The notes below the pieces were generated by a model. That model did not search any database. It saw nothing but the letters and a program-made list of their open reading frames with translations, and had not been told where the DNA came from. Shown one piece after another: positions 17,792 to 48,292 of a stretch of 64,000 nucleotides of DNA. Made by a program: the position numbers and the translations under genes. The stretch comes from Clostridia bacterium (GTDB taxonomy: Bacteria; Bacillota; Clostridia; UBA1212; UBA1255): positions 73,344-137,343 of the forward strand of contig JAEFAM010000001.1 of the NCBI GenBank assembly GCA_016287565.1. Reading direction: 5' to 3'. The stretch's first letter is position 1; each line of letters starts with the position of its first letter.

Positions 17792-17887
17792 ACCCGGGAA
17801 ATACCGGGCGCGGGCGCGTAATATTCCGTAATAACGCGTGATAATCCGTAATAACGTGAGATAACGCGCGGCCGCCGGGAAATAGGA
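17792..17887. promoter_or_regulatory. Tract with 10-bp periodicity (CCGKRAAT / CCGGGAAAT motif, about 9 units) upstream of holB
   Basis: The sequence was read directly (acccgggaaat accgggcgcg ... attccgtaat aacgcgtgat aatccgtaat aacgtgagat ... gccgggaaat). Confidence 0.45.
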
Positions 17888-17888
17888 T

Positions 17889-18926
17889 ATGTTTGAAAAA
17901 CTGCTTGGCCAGGAATTTGTAAAAAGGTCTCTTTCGGAAGCGGTCTCCACGGGCCGCATCGGTCACGCCTACGCTTTTTGCGGCCCAGATGGCATCGGAC
18001 GGAAAAGTTTTGCCAGGGAATTTGCGCTGCCTGCCATGTGTACGGAGATGGACGGCAGGACGGAGCCCTGCGGCCGGTGCGCCGCATGCAGATTGTCCGC
18101 CGCCGGGACAAACCCGGACCTGAGCGTGATCGCGGGAGACCCGGGCAGAGCCACCATCGGCGTGGAAACGGTGAGAGCGCTGGAAGAAGATATTGCCACG
18201 GCGCCCACGGTCTCGGCCAGGAAGGTGTATATAATCGACCGCAGCGAAAAATTGACGGTGCAGGCCCAGAACGCGCTCCTGAAGACCATCGAAGAGCCGC
18301 CGGAATACGTGATGCTGATACTGATCTGCTCGAATCCGGCGCTGCTTATCGACACGGTGCGGTCGAGGATCACGCGGCTGGACTTCGCCAGGAACAGCCC
18401 GGAGGAAGTGTTGACCGCGTACCGCGCGGGCAGGGGGGACAAGGGCGAATTGTCCCGGGATGACGAGCGGTTCGTGGTATCCTACGCGGACGGGATCATC
18501 GGCAGGGCGCTTCAATTGAACGATTTCGGGCTTTTCGGGCGCCTTCGGGAGGAACTTCTGGACGCGCTTTCTGCCCTGGAGGGAAGAGCCAGCGTTTTTC
18601 GCAGAAGGTTTACGGAGCTTTTTACGGCAAAGGAAAACGCGGACCAGAAAGAGTTTCTGTTCTTCGAATTGACGTCGTTTTTGAGAGATCTGATGCTTTC
18701 GGCCCGGTTCGGAGCAGGGGCGCCATTGCAAAACGAGCAGTTTCGGGATAAAATAGAAGAGCTTTCGGCGTTGACCGGCTGCCACGGCTGGGAAAAGATG
18801 CTGGACAAGACGGCGGAAGCATATAAATTGATGGGACAGAACGTTAATTTCAGGATGATGATCGCGAATCTGGCCGCGGATCTCATCGAAACGGTAAAAA
18901 AGGACGATAAAAGTCCGGCGCGTTGA
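17889..18926 (+). CDS. holB: DNA polymerase III subunit delta'
   Basis: An AAA+ clamp-loader fold with the zinc module (CGRCAACRL), in the position expected from synteny. Confidence 0.85.
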   Translation: MFEKLLGQEFVKRSLSEAVSTGRIGHAYAFCGPDGIGRKSFAREFALPAMCTEMDGRTEPCGRCAACRLSAAGTNPDLSVIAGDPGRATIGVETVRALEEDIATAPTVSARKVYIIDRSEKLTVQAQNALLKTIEEPPEYVMLILICSNPALLIDTVRSRITRLDFARNSPEEVLTAYRAGRGDKGELSRDDERFVVSYADGIIGRALQLNDFGLFGRLREELLDALSALEGRASVFRRRFTELFTAKENADQKEFLFFELTSFLRDLMLSARFGAGAPLQNEQFRDKIEELSALTGCHGWEKMLDKTAEAYKLMGQNVNFRMMIANLAADLIETVKKDDKSPAR

Positions 18927-18964
18927 CACAGCGGCGCGGCCGGGCGGTCCGGCAGGAGAGAAAA

Positions 18965-19855
18965 ATGGTACAGATAGTCAGCGTTAGATTCCGCCAGGCG
19001 GGAAGGACCTACTCCTTCAGCCCCGACGGGCTCGATATAAAGAAAGGCATGCACGTGATCGTGGAAACGATGCACGGGCCCGAGTACGGCGAGGCGGTCA
19101 CGGACGTGCGGGAAGTCGAAGACGATACCGTGGTGCAGCCGCTCCGGGACGTGATAAGGATCGCCACCCCGGCGGACGACGAGACGAACGAAGAGAACTG
19201 CCGCAGAGAAGAGGAAGCTTTCGTGATCTGCAGGGACGAAGTGGAAAAGTTCGGCCTGGAGATGAAGCTGATCAACGCGGAATACACATTCGACCTCAGC
19301 AAGCTGCTAATATATTTCGTGGCGGAAAACCGCATCGATTTCCGCGAACTGGTAAAGGACCTGGCGTCCATCTTCCGCACCCGCATCGAGCTGAGGCAGG
19401 TGGGATCGAGGGACCAGGCACGCACCGTGGGAGGCCTTGGCATCTGCGGCAGGGTGATCTGCTGCGCTTCTGCAATGAACGATTTTCAGCCTGTTTCCAT
19501 AAAAATGGCTAAAACGCAGGGCTTTTCCCTCAGCCCTTCTAAAATTTCCGGCACCTGCGGCCGCCTGATGTGCTGCCTGAAATACGAGCAGGACGCCTAC
19601 GAGGACGCCATGAAGCGCGTTCCGGCGGAAGGGTCCCTGGTGGAGACTCCGATGGGCAGGGGCGTAGTGACCGAGGCGGATTATCTGCGTGAAAGAGTGA
19701 AGGTCAATCTCGAGACCAGCGACGACTCGGGAGACGTGGAGCTTTTTGACGCGGCGGAAGTCACCAGCATCGGCAGGCGCAAGAAGAACGGGGGCAACGC
19801 TCCGTCGGCGGTCTCGCCGGAGGAAGAGGCGGAGTTCCGGAAATTGTCCGAATGA
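18965..19855 (+). CDS. ricT: Regulatory iron-sulfur-containing complex subunit RicT (YaaT; PSP1 domain)
   Basis: The N-terminus MVQIVSVRFRQAGRTYSF matches YaaT (MYDVIGVRFKKAGKIYYF), and the conserved CGR(V/M)xCC...CGRLMCCLKYE region is present. The track's TTG start at 18923 is probably an over-extension. Confidence 0.85.
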   Translation: MVQIVSVRFRQAGRTYSFSPDGLDIKKGMHVIVETMHGPEYGEAVTDVREVEDDTVVQPLRDVIRIATPADDETNEENCRREEEAFVICRDEVEKFGLEMKLINAEYTFDLSKLLIYFVAENRIDFRELVKDLASIFRTRIELRQVGSRDQARTVGGLGICGRVICCASAMNDFQPVSIKMAKTQGFSLSPSKISGTCGRLMCCLKYEQDAYEDAMKRVPAEGSLVETPMGRGVVTEADYLRERVKVNLETSDDSGDVELFDAAEVTSIGRRKKNGGNAPSAVSPEEEAEFRKLSE

Positions 19856-19949
19856 GGGACGAATAAAGTTTGCGGTGCGGCAAACGGCGCGGCAAACAGT
19901 ACGGTAAGCAGGACGGCAAACGGGTCTGCAAACGGGATGGAAAGCGAAA

Positions 19950-21233
19950 ATGAACGGATCTGCTAATTTGGATCAGAGATATGAGGAAGCCCGCGGGCGG
20001 CTGGAAAAATACGGCCAGGACGGGCTTCTTGCCTGTTACGGCGAACTGGACGAGGCGGGGAAAGAGCGGCTCCTTAAAGACGTGGAGGAGCTGGATCTGG
20101 AACTGATGGAGCGGCTGTTCGCGAAAACGGCGAAGCATCAGGAGGGCGGCGAGGTGCTGGCCTCCGAGCTCAGGCCGCTGAAACCTGTTGACAGCGGGAA
20201 ATTGACGGCGGACGAGCGGGAAAGGCTGGAAAAACTGGGGCTGGAGGCCATTGCCCGAGGAAAACTGGCGGTGTTGACCATGGCCGGCGGCCAGGGCACG
20301 CGGCTGGGCCACGACGGGCCGAAAGGGACATTCGACATAGGATTGCCCTCGCATAAATCGCTGTTCGAGCTCCATTGCGACAAACTTCGCGCCGTGTCGG
20401 AGCGCGCGGGCAGTTTCGTGCCCTGGTACATTATGACCAGCGACATCAACCACGCCGCTACCGAAGCTTTTTTCGAGGAGCACGGCTTTTTCGGATATCC
20501 CCGGGACAAGGTCCGCTTCTTCCCGCAGACGATGATCCCGCCCATGACTCCCGATGGAAAGCTCAGGCTGGAGCGGCCGGACAAGGTCCTGAAGAGCCCC
20601 AACGGCAACGGCGGCATGTTCGTTTCTCTTAAGAAGCAGGGCTGCCTGGAAGAGCTTCGGGCCGCAGGGATCGAATATCTGATGGTGGTGGGCGTTGACA
20701 ACTGCCTCATCAAAATGGCGGATCCGCTGTTCCTGGGGGCGCTGATCGACGCGCCGGAGGCGGAGGCCATTGCCAAATCGTACCTGAAGCGCGGGCCCGG
20801 CGAGAAAGCAGGCATCTTCTGTTTCCGGGGAGGGACGCCCTGCGTGGTGGAATATACGGAGGTGCCGGAAGAGGCGGCGGTCCTTAAGGATGAGAACGGA
20901 GAGTACGTTTACGGCGACTGCAACCTTCTGGCGTACGTTTTCCGCATGGACACGGTGGAGAGGCTGTGCGGCGCGGGAATGGATTATCATATCGCGGTGA
21001 AAAAGATCAAATATTACGATCCGGCTTCCGGCGAAGAGAAGGAGCAGCCGGGCAGCTTCAAGTTCGAAATGTTCCTTTTCGACGCTTTCAAGGCGCTCAA
21101 AGGCGAGAACGGGCTGAAAGTGCTGCGCGTGGAACGGATCGACGAATTTGCCCCGGTGAAGAATCTGACAGGCGAAGACAGCGCGGAACTTGCCCGGGAA
21201 ATGTTTATGGATTACGGGAAAAGGTCGGGAAAT
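19950..21233 (+). CDS. UDP-N-acetylhexosamine/UDP-sugar pyrophosphorylase (eukaryotic UAP1-type). No stop codon separates it from the downstream IDH gene.
   Basis: It carries LTMAGGQGTRLGHDGPKGTFDIGLPSHKSLFEL, which is UAP1-like. About 428 codons run in-frame straight into the IDH reading frame. Confidence 0.6.
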
Positions 21234-22457
21234 ATGAGTGATATTAAGAAAATTTCCAAAATAGCCATGAAAACTCCTCTGGTGGAGATGGACGGAGACG
21301 AAATGACCCGGGTGATTTGGGCGAAGATAAAGGATATCGTGATCAGGCCATTCGTTGACCTGAAGACGGAATATTACGACCTTTCGATCATGAACCGGGA
21401 CGCTACAGACGACAAGGTGACAGTGGAGAGCGCGGAGGCCACTAAGAAGTACGGTGTGGCGGTCAAGTGCGCTACCATCACGGCCAACGACGCCAGGCAG
21501 CAGGAGTTCGGCCTCAAAAAGCTCTGGAAGAGCCCCAACGCTACCATCAGGGCAATACTTGACGGCACGGTCTTCCGGGCGCCTATACTGGTGGATGGGA
21601 TCACGCCTCTGGTCCCCGGCTGGAAGAAGCCCATCGTCATTGCCAGGCACGCCTACGGAGACATTTATTCCGCAGTTGACGCAGTGGTGCCGAAGGGGTC
21701 GAAGGCCGAGTTGGTCATCACCGACGCCACGGGCAACGAAAAGCGGCTGACGGTGAAGGAATTCAGCGCTTCCGACGGTGTCGTTATGGGAATGCACAAT
21801 ACGAACGCGTCCATCGCCAATTTCGCCAGGGCCTGCTTCCAGTACGCGCTTGACCTGGGCGTGGATCTGTGGTTCTCCGCGAAAGACACGATCTCGAAGG
21901 TGTACGACGGCAATTTCCGCAGCGTTTTTGCGCAGATCTATGAAAATGAATATAAAACCCGGTTCGAGGACGCGGGCATCAGTTACTTCTACACGCTGGT
22001 GGACGACGCCATCGCCAGAGTTATGAAGTCCGAAGGCGGCTTCCTGTGGGCCTGCAAGAATTACGACGGAGACGTGTTCTCGGATATGCTGGCAACGGCT
22101 TTCGGCAGCCTTGCCATGATGACGTCGGTGCTGGTGTCTCCGGAGGGTTATTACGAATACGAGGCCGCCCACGGCACGATCCCCAGGCATTATCACAAAT
22201 ATCTGCGGGGAGAGGCCACTTCCACCAATCCCGTGGCAACGCTTTTCGCCTGGACCGGGGCGCTGGCCAAGCGCGGCGAACTGGACGATATCCCGGATCT
22301 GGTGGAGTTCGCCAAAAAGACGGAAAAGGTCACGCTGGAAGCCATCGCCGAGGGCAATATGACCGGCGACCTGGCGCTGATCTCTACCCTTCCCGAAAAG
22401 CGGGTAATGAACCTCGACGAATTCCTGGGCGAAGTTGCCAGGAGACTGGCCGAGTGA
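21234..22457 (+). CDS. icd: NADP-dependent isocitrate dehydrogenase (dimeric eukaryotic-like subfamily)
   Basis: It aligns end to end with IDH1/IDH2 (MSDIKKISK...VEMDGDEMTRVIW...KCATITANDARQQEFGLKKLWKSPNATIR...). It has its own AAAGG ribosome-binding site and ATG. Confidence 0.85.
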   Translation: MSDIKKISKIAMKTPLVEMDGDEMTRVIWAKIKDIVIRPFVDLKTEYYDLSIMNRDATDDKVTVESAEATKKYGVAVKCATITANDARQQEFGLKKLWKSPNATIRAILDGTVFRAPILVDGITPLVPGWKKPIVIARHAYGDIYSAVDAVVPKGSKAELVITDATGNEKRLTVKEFSASDGVVMGMHNTNASIANFARACFQYALDLGVDLWFSAKDTISKVYDGNFRSVFAQIYENEYKTRFEDAGISYFYTLVDDAIARVMKSEGGFLWACKNYDGDVFSDMLATAFGSLAMMTSVLVSPEGYYEYEAAHGTIPRHYHKYLRGEATSTNPVATLFAWTGALAKRGELDDIPDLVEFAKKTEKVTLEAIAEGNMTGDLALISTLPEKRVMNLDEFLGEVARRLAE

Positions 22458-22460
22458 TAT

Positions 22461-22581
22461 TCCGAAAATACCGGTAAATTCTTGTAATTTCCGGGAAATA
22501 TCCGGAAATGCCGGTAAATTTCCGAAAACTCCGGGAAAAGTCGGGAAATATTACGGTATTTCCCGGGAAATGCGGGAAAAT
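22461..22581. promoter_or_regulatory. Tandem 10-bp-periodic repeat tract (nCCGGnAAAT, about 12 units, including the palindrome ATTTCCCGGGAAAT), upstream of 22639
   Basis: The sequence was read directly. Confidence 0.5.
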
Positions 22582-22638: not shown

Positions 22639-23367
22639 ATGAAAAAGATCGGTATCCAGCTTTACTCCGTTGGCGGAGAAATGGCCAGAAGCGTGCCTGA
22701 AACGCTGAAAAAAGTTGCCGGGCTCGGCTACAGCCAGGTGGAATTCGCCGGATATTTCGGCGTTGACGCCCGGGAAATGAAAAAGATGCTGGACGAGTAC
22801 GGCCTGGAAGCCGTCAGCTCCCACGCCAACGTGGTGGGAAATCTTGACGCGGAACTGGAATATATGCAGACCGTAGGGGCGAAGAATATCGCCTGCGCCG
22901 GGATCGGAGATTTCAACAGCCATGACAACGTGCTGCGCATTGCTGAACTGTTCAATTCCATCGGCGAAAAGTGCGAAAAGGCCGGTATACATTTTAGTTA
23001 TCACAACCATTCTCACGAGTTTGCCCGGGACGAAGAGGGCAAATGGCTCCTGGACGTGCTGTACGAGAACACGGACCCGAAGCTGGTCAATGTGCAGCTT
23101 GACGTTTGCTGGGCGCTGGTGGGCGGCGCGGATCCCGTGGCGTACCTGGCGAAATACAAGGACAGGGTCAAAATGGTCCATATGAAAGAGGTCAAGACGG
23201 TCTCGCCTTACGAGGGCACGGCTATTGGTATGGGGCTGGTGGATTTCCCCGGCATCTACAAACTTCTGGGCGACGACGTGCTGTACATCGTGGAGCAGGA
23301 GGGGCTTCCTCATATGGAGACCTGGGAAGGGCTTCGCAGGAGCGTGGAATATCTGAAAGCGCTTTAA
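22639..23367 (+). CDS. Sugar phosphate isomerase/epimerase (xylose-isomerase-like TIM barrel)
   Basis: A 242-aa protein with the typical AP-endonuclease-2/xylose-isomerase-like motif spacing (metal-ligand H/E/D positions). Confidence 0.7.
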   Translation: MKKIGIQLYSVGGEMARSVPETLKKVAGLGYSQVEFAGYFGVDAREMKKMLDEYGLEAVSSHANVVGNLDAELEYMQTVGAKNIACAGIGDFNSHDNVLRIAELFNSIGEKCEKAGIHFSYHNHSHEFARDEEGKWLLDVLYENTDPKLVNVQLDVCWALVGGADPVAYLAKYKDRVKMVHMKEVKTVSPYEGTAIGMGLVDFPGIYKLLGDDVLYIVEQEGLPHMETWEGLRRSVEYLKAL

Positions 23368-23402: not shown

Positions 23403-23502
23403 CATTAAACATCAAAAAGACCGGCGGACAGGAAAACGTCCGCCGGTCTTTTCGTTTTTTCAGGGCCTAATATCAGGCCTCAGTCCCGGTCGTTGCCGGA
23501 GA

Positions 23503-25075: not shown

Positions 25076-25271
25076 AGCTAAATTCACCCTTCGGGCGAGC
25101 TAAATTGGATCCTGCGGATCCAGCTAAATTCCGCTGCGCGGAGCTAAATTCGTCCTGACGGACGAGCGATGTGGAAAGGGGACAGACTTGAGTTTCACAG
25201 CTAAATTCACCCTTCGGGTGAGCTAAATTGGATCCTGCGGAGCCGGCTGAATTCGTTCTAAAGAACGAGCG
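25076..25271. repeat. Composite hairpin array. The punctuation AGCTAAATT separates four short GC hairpins (cacccttcgggtg, ggatcctgcggatcc, ccgctgcgcgg, cgtcctgacggacg). There are two tandem units, each primed by a REP copy.
   Basis: The sequence was read directly. The same array, inverted, lies at 30573-30665. Confidence 0.7.
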
Positions 25272-46357: not shown

Positions 46358-46510
46358 GTGCGAACGGGGGACAGACTTGGGTTTCGGGCGGTCGAATGGT
46401 CCGTCGAACGGGGGACAGACTTGGGTTTCGGGCGGTCGAATGGTCCGTCGAACGGGGGACAGACTTTCGTTCGCCCCCCGGTGGAAAGGGGACAGACTTG
46501 CGATCACCGT
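46358..46510. repeat. REP-like repeat cluster (4 copies, GAACGGGGGACAGACTTGGGTTTCG and variants)
   Basis: The sequence was read directly. Confidence 0.8.
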
Positions 46511-46844: not shown

Positions 46845-46966
46845 CGACGGACAATTATTGCCCGGAATTGTTCCCGGGCAACGCACGATTTTTCAAACAC
46901 GAGGCTGCTTTCCTTTATAGGAACGACAAGCGGCCTCTTGTTTTTTTTGTCTGCCTGGGCTGGAAA

Positions 46967-47065
46967 ACCCAAGTCTGTCACCTTTCCACCGGCAGGTGAA
47001 CGCAAGTCTGTCACCTTTCCACCGGCTGGAAAACGCAAGTCTGTCACTCGTTCGCGGCTGGGTTG
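46967..47065. repeat. REP-like repeat cluster (3 copies, inverse orientation, the GTCACC variant)
   Basis: The sequence was read directly. Confidence 0.75.
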
Positions 47066-48084: not shown

Positions 48085-48180
48085 TAACGGAGACACCTCT
48101 TCTCGTTTTGATGTACGAATTGTAACATATTTGTGAAGCTGTTGGCAAGAGGCCGGCGGACAGGCGGTGGAGGGGCGCGA

Positions 48181-48292
48181 ACAGGGGACAGACTTGGGTT
48201 TCGACCGATTCGCGCGGCGGTGGAAAGGGGACAGACTTCCGTTTCGAACGATTCGACCGATGGTGAACAGGGGACAGACTTCCGTTTCGCCT
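48181..48292. repeat. REP-like repeat cluster (3 copies)
   Basis: The sequence was read directly. Confidence 0.8.

Follow-up and report, generated by a model that had tools for sequence, protein, structure and literature searches.

The described proteins nearest to the gene reported here belong to two families. Its N-terminal half resembles the eukaryotic UDP-N-acetylhexosamine pyrophosphorylases (UAPs) of the UAP1/AGX1 type (PDB 1jv1, 8qh2, 4bma and 2yqc), and its C-terminal half resembles the type II, homodimeric NADP-dependent isocitrate dehydrogenases (IDHs) represented by PDB 4aou and by human IDH1 and IDH2. Both halves are encoded by one open reading frame (ORF) in the window, by which we mean the whole stretch of 64,000 nucleotides (nt) analysed here, taken from contig JAEFAM010000001.1 of a Clostridia bacterium (Table 1). 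We consider it highly probable that this is a genuine gene for a bifunctional polypeptide of ~92 kDa, in which a UAP1/AGX-type enzyme is followed by a type II NADP-IDH, and that it is derived from an anciently linked pair of translationally coupled genes. The literature yielded nothing on a UAP-IDH fusion or pairing, nor on IDH-linked UAP1-type enzymes in bacteria. This architecture, like the conserved gene pair behind it, appears to be undescribed. The components themselves are familiar, as is the evolutionary process.

Two enzyme modules in one reading frame

No stop codon interrupts the plus-strand frame across 19950-22457, and a single ORF encodes all 835 amino acids (aa). Translation may start at the ATG at 19950 or at a TTG at 19971, the latter being the start used by the fused homologue P0001. 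In Pfam, aa 55-448 match PF01704 (UDPGP; 126.9 bits, cut-off 22) and aa 444-812 match PF00180 (Iso_dh; 169.2 bits, cut-off 27). NCBIfam recognizes an NADP-IDH over aa 436-834 by two profiles, NF006156 (616 bits, cut-off 335) and TIGR00127 (520 bits, cut-off 397). An earlier note on this DNA, made from the letters alone, had described a single 835-codon ORF joining a UAP to an NADP-IDH without an intervening stop, and the ORF and both sets of family profiles bear this out.

In PDB searches the UAP half was matched by UAPs with E-values from 2e-74 (8qh2) to 6e-48, including 3e-67 for AGX1 (1jv1), and by UDP-glucose and UDP-sugar pyrophosphorylases (UGPases and USPs) with E-values of about 1e-10 to 1e-6; judged from these matches, it is clearly closer to the UAPs than to the UGPase or USP branches. 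It aligns with the eukaryotic UAP1/AGX1 enzymes over ~400 residues (E = 2e-74 to 8e-62) and has their LxxAGGQGTRLG...PKG loop, GNGG, EY(T/S)E and F(A/S)P(V/L)KN motifs. The LTMAGGQGTRLG motif lies at aa 109-120 (20274-20309), within the signature LTMAGGQGTRLGHDGPKG, which fits the catalytic loop pattern L-x2-G-x-G-T-x-(L/M)-G-x4-P-K; this pattern is invariant in 25 fusions and 16 UAPs. Across the same 25 fusions the motifs AGGQG-RLG...GPKG, GNGG, EYTE and FAPxKN do not vary, and neither do the individual residues G113, G114, Q115, G116, R118, L119, G120, G123, P124, K125 and G126. Also invariant are G219-N220-G221-G222, E301-Y302-T303-E304 and K404-N405, which align with PDGNGG, VVEYSE and FSPLKN of 8qh2. 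In the AGX1 structures, GNGG, EY-x-E and the Lys of F-x-P-x-KN are sugar-binding motifs.

Unlike the eukaryotic UAP1/AGX1 enzymes, the UAP half is bacterial and fused to an IDH, and it has no C-terminal domain of ~60-90 residues after the catalytic Lys: the PF01704 match stops at profile position 373 of 413, so that this eukaryotic UAP1 domain is missing. The domain is also missing from the standalone bacterial homologues, which are 407-430 aa long and end 10-20 residues past the FAPVKN...AREMY motif. Since these homologues have the same end, the fusion holds an essentially complete bacterial UAP, and the missing domain is, on this comparison, a difference of the bacterial subfamily rather than a loss through fusion. 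The earlier note had called this half a complete eukaryotic-type UAP; it is full-length by the measure of standalone bacterial homologues, but without the eukaryotic C-terminal domain.

The IDH family match begins at about aa 436 (KIAMKTP...), not at Met429, and the best PDB match of this half is 4aou (E = 7e-178), which is the C. thermocellum IDH according to the Foldseek output. The motifs KCATIT, SPN-T-R, RHA-GD-Y, NYDGDVFSD and EAAHGT are invariant across the 25 fusions, and PRH is nearly so, with one Lys for Arg (P0018). Individual residues invariant in the 25 fusions are T511, S528, N530, R534, R543, R566, Y573, K645, D685/D686, D708 and D712, which presumably correspond to the isocitrate- and metal-binding residues T77, S94, N96, R100, R109, R132, Y139, K212, D252, D275 and D279 of IDH1. 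H747 is likewise invariant and R746 is present in at least 90% of the fusions (Lys in P0018); we take these to be the counterparts of the NADP-specificity residues R314/H315 of IDH1, the mapping being made by constant offset. The half is thus like 4aou and human IDH1/IDH2 in its substrate, metal and NADP motifs and in passing the equivalog cut-offs. It is unlike other type II NADP-IDHs in carrying a 430-residue enzyme at its N-terminus, in having lost its own start codon in most fusion clades, and in belonging to a distinct clade of UAP-linked IDHs.

In unsaturated comparisons between fused genes, Nei-Gojobori estimates of dN/dS ranged from 0.059 to 0.086 in the UAP half and from 0.041 to 0.057 in the IDH half. 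Both halves are under strong purifying selection and, from their retained catalytic motifs and these low ratios, both look functional. That one half is a degenerate pseudo-enzyme kept as a scaffold or regulatory domain is very improbable: nothing specific favours it beyond the generic possibility that odd fusions raise, and it is contradicted by the invariant signature and ligand-binding motifs of both halves in the 25 fusions, by ratios of 0.04-0.09 in both, and by scores far above the curated family cut-offs.

A search over 5.8 billion proteins with the 835-aa fusion as query retrieved full-length UDPGP+Iso_dh fusions in 24 clusters (P0001-P0024), 779-835 aa long and from 98% down to 51% identical to the window protein. 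The clusters with a named source come from metagenome-assembled genomes (MAGs) of Clostridia or Ruminococcaceae and are annotated 'NADP-dependent isocitrate dehydrogenase'. The identical 835-aa protein, named 'isocitrate dehydrogenase' in JGI/IMG, was found on 7 contigs that had been assembled independently and come from NCBI and JGI sources. P0001, which is 98% identical and comes from a different sample, is fused, as are P0002 to P0007 (74-89% identity), each with its own diverged linker, and the distant fusion P0013 is present on 13 contigs. Two GTDB species-representative MAGs, L010 and L011 (sheep omasum, yak rumen), also carry the fusion. A further protein search, with only the UAP half as query, listed 695-aa LicD fusions again but not clusters P0001-P0024; this looks like an effect of the search prefilter, and no weight was given to absence from that listing.

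An AlphaFold2 model of the window protein had a mean predicted local distance difference test score (pLDDT) of 90.5 and a predicted template-modelling score (pTM) of 0.59. The pLDDT is 66-77 in a coil at residues 427-443 and mostly above 85 in the IDH half, and the model thus predicts two well-folded modules joined by a flexible tether. The linker-less fusion P0013, modelled with the same 75-sequence alignment, gave pLDDT 92.6 and pTM 0.84 with a junction pLDDT above 90, and its IDH half superposes on 4aou with a TM-score of 0.96 and a root-mean-square deviation of 1.3 Å. The pTM of P0013 implies a defined inter-domain packing, which we regard as a lead rather than proof of interaction. Foldseek comparison with the PDB found no solved chain covering both halves (TMq at most 0.48).

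The gene pair in related genomes and its junction

Each 'solo' UAP examined in this part of the tree has an IDH immediately downstream. The two components occur as separate genes in L004-L007, L012, L013, L170-L173 and L177. Among the protein clusters, the genes overlap by 4 nt in P0133, by 8 nt in P0122 and through a GTGA in P0127, and are separated by 42 nt in P0125; among the loci, the overlap is 4-8 nt in L170, L171 and L172 and 1 nt in L012, with gaps of 3 nt in L013 and 42 nt in L177. In the unfused pairs the IDH start overlaps or abuts the UAP stop (ATGA, GTGA or TAATG) and a Shine-Dalgarno (SD) sequence lies within the UAP 3' end. An overlapping stop and start with an SD inside the upstream gene is, as read from these sequences, the anatomy of translational coupling. 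More distant UAPs differ: among the matches listed, none of 156 distant UAP loci (39-49% identity) had an IDH in the surrounding sequence examined, and a metagenome scan with the UAP alignment listed distant UAPs alone (39-49% identity), with no further fused or IDH-adjacent loci.

In the IDH tree, the UAP-linked IDHs, whether fused or adjacent, form one clade (bootstrap 100) apart from other clostridial IDHs. A concatenated UAP+IDH tree of 33 linked pairs (neighbour-joining, as were all trees, with midpoint or outgroup rooting) resolves the fusions into clade A (P0016-P0024), clade B (P0011-P0015), clade C (P0009 and P0010, with the unfused L170 nested inside) and clade D (the window, P0001-P0007 and L010). 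The fusion persists in clades A and B despite divergence to ~51-55% identity, and the linkers of clades C and D are variable and differ from each other. The successive outgroups of clade D, L004 and L171, are unfused, and the L171, L004 and clade-D nodes each have a support of 100, which makes the window fusion a relatively recent joining, or rejoining, of two overlapping coupled genes. Under Fitch parsimony at least 4 changes of state, fused or unfused, are needed, and the midpoint root comes out as fused. As these trees read, the UAP-IDH linkage is old and anciently conserved in uncultured gut and rumen Clostridia. The description of the two enzymes as functionally unrelated in the earlier note holds in that they share no one known pathway, but within this clade a UAP followed by an IDH is an anciently conserved, coupled pair.

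The window junction reads ...AREMFMDYGKRSGN-MSDIKKISKIAMKTPLVEMDGDEM..., as had been quoted, with an AAAGG 9 nt 5' of the ATG of Met429 (21234-21236). The closest standalone UAP, P0121, is 72% identical to the UAP half of the window and has its synteny (CdAMP_rec, holB, PSP1, UAP, IDH, AP_endonuc_2). On four independent contigs (L004-L007) the UAP (423 aa) and the IDH (403 aa) are separate genes with a 4-nt overlap (ATGA); in L004 the UAP ends with ...DYMKRSGISRI* and the IDH starts with MKEKITMKTPLVEMDG, the two sharing the ATGA, and a GGAG lies within the UAP tail. The AAAGG of the window aligns to GGAG or GGAGG in the UAP 3' ends of L004, L012, L013, L170 and L172. Window and L004 have ...DY(G/M)KRSG in common, and beyond it the window reads on in the IDH frame of L004 (N-M-S-D-I-K-K in the window, N-I-P-D-M-K-E in L004). 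Counted from a conserved AGG codon, the ATG of KIxM lies 35 nt away in L004, 36 nt away in the fused L010 and 42 nt away in the window, which places the fused genes at +1 (mod 3) relative to the unfused ones. On this alignment, the window fusion arose by an indel of +1 (mod 3), a few codons 5' of the overlapping stop and start, that merged the two frames. It is in this respect like other ATGA-overlap coupled pairs turned into fusions by frameshifting indels, with an SD in the upstream gene and overlaps of 4-8 nt. The supposition that the UAP gene had lost its stop codon is therefore right as to a genuine translational fusion and wrong as to the route, which was a frame-merging indel near the ATGA and not a point loss of the stop; a stop at the junction is absent from the fused relatives and present, overlapping the IDH start, in the unfused L004-L007.

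The smallness of this difference invites the explanation that a spurious 1-nt indel in a short A-run fused two overlapping genes during sequencing or assembly. Fused and unfused forms do differ by just +1 nt (mod 3), beside GGGAAAT/GGAAT, and such an indel is the commonest type of sequencing error. The recurrence of the identical protein on seven independently assembled contigs from different sources, the separately diverged linkers of the fused relatives P0001 to P0007, the fused representatives L010 and L011, and the clade A and B junctions, which have no start codon or SD at all, effectively refute it. The error that the earlier note had allowed for is excluded by the 7 contigs together with the 24 fusion clusters.

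A second alternative accepts the fused frame but holds that the cell makes mostly free IDH, by internal initiation at Met429 (AAAGG-N9-ATG), so that the fusion protein is a minor, near-neutral by-product and the locus behaves as a coupled two-gene arrangement. An SD-like remnant and an in-frame ATG are indeed present in the window and in L008, and L010 has a stronger AAAGGAG-N10-ATG; 4 of the 7 clade-D linkers contain a Met, and the model of the window protein shows a flexible tether alone (pTM 0.59). However, Met429 itself occurs only in the window and P0001 and is not homologous to the start codon of the sister lineage, since the ATG that starts the unfused IDH aligns with ATT (Ile432, 21243-21245). 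A Met is missing from the linkers of P0003, P0005 and P0007, and clades A and B, with a seamless ...ARxLYMK-xNKIxMxTP... junction lacking linker, SD and start codon in the DNA, have nonetheless kept the fusion to ~51-55% identity. A translating ribosome would also tend to occlude the site, and even if internal initiation did occur, every UAP molecule would carry an IDH. We therefore find mostly free IDH doubtful. Partial internal initiation at Met429 is possible in clade D, but it cannot be general across the fusion clades. The ribosome-binding site and ATG that the earlier note had assigned to the IDH accordingly survive as an SD-like remnant with an in-frame ATG, and not as an ancestral or conserved start. 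Linker length among the fusions ranges from 0 to 24 aa.

Other accounts of the junction were set aside. A TGA in the +1 frame at 21235-21237 could be taken for the old ATGA overlap, but the most parsimonious alignment (one 1-nt and one 6-nt indel) puts the ancestral ATGA at 21243-21246, and the alternative requires indels of 8 and 15 nt. Programmed frameshifting is not indicated: GGGAAAA at 21216-21222 is out of the zero-frame X_XXY_YYZ register, and the Rfam scan found no element at the junction. Nor was an internal promoter or terminator predicted at the junction between the halves. An alternative genetic code or stop read-through is irrelevant to a frame without a stop. As the frame has no stop at the junction, no special termination mechanism is needed, and the programmed termination by some other mechanism that had been suggested finds neither a stop to bypass nor an in-frame slippery site.

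Genomic setting and other fusion partners

The UAP followed by the IDH is the only constant neighbourhood, and the flanking genes vary by lineage. In clades C and D, holB-PSP1 precedes the pair and AP_endonuc_2 or a cation-efflux gene follows it. Glucose-6-phosphate isomerase (PGI) lies directly downstream of the IDH in three lineages, those of P0013, P0125 and the UAP-LicD fusion; in the last (L175) an IDH-PGI pair lies 2.6 kb downstream of the fusion. The PGI genes are at 10528-11841 in L001, 7625-8932 in L177 and 10910-12091 in L175, a recurring UAP-IDH-PGI trio. In the P0018 lineage a citrate synthase gene (L009, 6637-7998) ends 2 nt before the UAP-IDH fusion and a serine hydroxymethyltransferase gene follows it, which places this fusion in a context of the tricarboxylic acid (TCA) branch and one-carbon metabolism.

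Table 1. Features at and around the fused gene in the window
Feature	Coordinates	Strand	Basis or remark
holB (DNA polymerase III delta')	17889-18926	+	Upstream; synteny with fused and unfused relatives of clades C and D
PSP1/RicT-like gene	18923-19855	+	Upstream; synteny with fused and unfused relatives of clades C and D
Fused UAP-IDH ORF	19950-22457	+	835 codons plus TGA stop
Predicted UAP1/AGX-type UDP-N-acetylhexosamine pyrophosphorylase module, aa 1-426, last helix aa 412-426	19950-21227	+	PF01704, PDB matches, AlphaFold2 pLDDT >90
Nucleotidyltransferase signature LTMAGGQGTRLGHDGPKG, aa 109-126	20274-20327	+	Residues invariant in 25 fusions
AAAGG, SD remnant inside coding sequence (codons K424-R425)	21220-21224	+	Aligns with UAP 3' ends of unfused relatives
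Frame-merging zone, holding the Met429 ATG	21225-21236	+	Three-frame translations and DNA alignment
Variable inter-domain linker, aa 427-439	21228-21266	+	Linker length and AlphaFold2 coil
Predicted type II (homodimeric, eukaryote-like) NADP-IDH module, aa 436-835	21255-22454	+	NF006156, TIGR00127, 4aou
AP_endonuc_2 (xylose-isomerase-like TIM barrel)	22639-23367	+	Downstream; syntenic in L005, L008, L010, L011 and L174

The same UAP family is also found fused to a phosphohexomutase (PGM_PMM I-III, ~990 aa) or to LicD (695 aa). As in the UAP-IDH fusion, the UAP is N-terminal, the partner C-terminal, and the junction falls shortly past FAPVKN...AR; unlike there, the partners are biochemically obvious, the phosphohexomutase being the preceding pathway step and LicD a downstream transferase. 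These paralogous fusions support a predicted role of the UAPs as sugar-1-phosphate uridylyltransferases. The ORFs of ~990 aa contain distant clostridial UAPs (~42-44% identical). In L014 (5998-8961) the C-terminal part consists of PGM_PMM domains I-III, and a fusion of this type would unite the last two steps of the eukaryote-type UDP-HexNAc pathway. Judged by length alone, similar ORFs occur in L016, L017, L022, L028, L030, L040, L045-L047, L059, L065, L079 and L086 and in 9 metagenome loci (e.g. L102). The UAP fused to a LicD-family phosphotransferase (695 aa) is seen in P0089, P0092 and P0100 among others, and in L175 (5001-7091), where a sortase gene comes next.

IDHs related to the window's IDH half also bear other appendages, namely TrmB-like, RepL-like and ~250-aa domains at the N-terminus, the last of no named family, and DUF1292 or Peptidase_M15_4 at the C-terminus, which indicates that IDH termini tolerate fusion. 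P0054 and ~30 similar clusters (614 aa) have an N-terminal TrmB-like Methyltransf_4 domain and keep the IDH Met at the junction, and P0066, P0026, P0040, P0036 and P0083 are clostridial type II IDHs with a RepL-like helix-turn-helix, the ~250-aa N-terminal domain, DUF1292 or Peptidase_M15_4. These clusters may be real fusions or may be represented by proteins biased to the longest form.

Several further features of the DNA were observed. The intergenic sequence downstream of the fused gene (22459-22581) holds ~11 head-to-tail, helically phased copies of a 10-nt unit, (T/C)CCGG(G/T)AAAT, with the palindrome ATTTCCCGGGAAAT at 22558-22571 within the array. The next gene begins 2-5 nt past the IDH in L010 and L005, and the ~180-nt spacer of the window looks lineage-specific. 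Upstream (19866-19945) lie ~6 copies of a repeat with a 12-nt period, CGGCAAAC plus 4 nt, and other intergenic tandem repeats of the window, with periods of 10-44 nt, are at 17815-17864, 25076-25167, 46361-46466, 46958-47047 and 48179-48289. An 811-aa ORF runs antisense to the fusion gene (19761-22196, minus strand); G+C-rich genes with a codon bias usually have an antisense frame poor in stops, and this ORF is most likely such a frame rather than a real gene. A strong bidirectional terminator-like hairpin with a 15-18 bp stem lies at 23403-23458, between AP_endonuc_2 and a convergent ORF for a 495-aa surface-protein-like product, and accounts for the sub-threshold Rfam hits to MIR8008 and CsrC.

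Predicted function of the fusion and its significance

In the reading that we favour, that of a genuine bifunctional gene, the N-terminal module would convert UTP and HexNAc-1-P to UDP-HexNAc and PPi, and the C-terminal module would convert isocitrate and NADP+ to 2-oxoglutarate, CO2 and NADPH. In clade D, the UAP came into frame with the IDH through an indel of +1 (mod 3) lying a few codons ahead of the stop/start overlap, the old UAP tail and the former IDH leader becoming a short flexible linker, and transitions of this kind between fused and unfused states occurred repeatedly, with at least 4 state changes. Each module probably catalyses its own reaction at one of two independent active sites, and the IDH half would still dimerise, giving a dimer that bears two UAP modules. 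The fusion would fix the 1:1 co-production already given by translational coupling, and it may be tolerated because the IDH N-terminus accepts appendages. More speculatively, the pair could co-supply cell-envelope precursors, the UAP giving UDP-HexNAc and the IDH giving NADPH (e.g. for MurB) and 2-oxoglutarate/glutamate (for D-Glu and as amino donors).

Several points weigh against this reading or limit its reach. The 92-kDa species is a prediction from the gene sequence, and the SD-like AAAGG 9 nt before an in-frame ATG, or the AAAGGAG-N10-ATG of L010, could yield free IDH as well. The sugar substrate of the UAP half, as predicted from sequence, could be GlcNAc-1-P, GalNAc-1-P or another sugar-1-P. 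The number and direction of the fusion and fission events, including the fused ancestor, are approximate, since the trees are neighbour-joining with low support at several deep nodes and leave the direction of the oldest events uncertain. Finally, we know of no pathway that directly joins the UAP and IDH reactions, and the physiological rationale is conjecture.

A stronger proposal would make UAP and NADP-IDH a physical or regulatory unit, a complex when separate and hard-wired when fused, in which the ligands (isocitrate, 2-oxoglutarate, NADPH and UDP-HexNAc) cross-modulate the two activities. A conserved gene pair or a Rosetta-stone fusion is often a sign that the proteins interact. The present case is like Rosetta-stone composite proteins in that fused and unfused forms coexist in related genomes, the classic sign of functional association; it is unlike the usual cases in that UAP and IDH are not in one known pathway and that the state has flipped at least 4 times within a clade. 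The proposal is favoured by a pair kept while all flanking genes change, by the monophyly of the UAP-linked IDHs, by the repeated recurrence of fusion, by the confident junction and the pTM of the linker-less P0013, which would imply an inter-domain interface, and by the position after the IDH, in three lineages, of PGI, the maker of the entry substrate of the hexosamine pathway. Against it, no biochemical precedent was found in the literature, the model of the window protein gives no confident packing of the two domains against each other, pTM reports on an interface indirectly, and the unrelated N-terminal partners of related IDHs fit an opportunistic fusion to any upstream gene. On balance such a unit seems unlikely to us.

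For the genuine bifunctional gene, the consequences are nearer at hand. Automated annotation hides a sugar-nucleotide enzyme in proteins named as IDHs, which distorts metabolic reconstructions of gut and rumen Clostridia. The locus offers a natural series of unfused, linker-containing and linker-less forms, in which overlapping coupled genes become fusions via single-base frame changes. A pair that is stable amid changing flanks and has been fused several times is among the stronger genomic signals of functional association, and it raises a concrete, testable question, namely whether anaerobes link the oxidative branch of the TCA cycle to the synthesis of envelope precursors. If the two enzymes do form a physical or regulatory unit, the 2-oxoglutarate/NADPH node, and with it carbon and nitrogen status, would be coupled to the supply of UDP-HexNAc for the envelope, an unrecognised control point.

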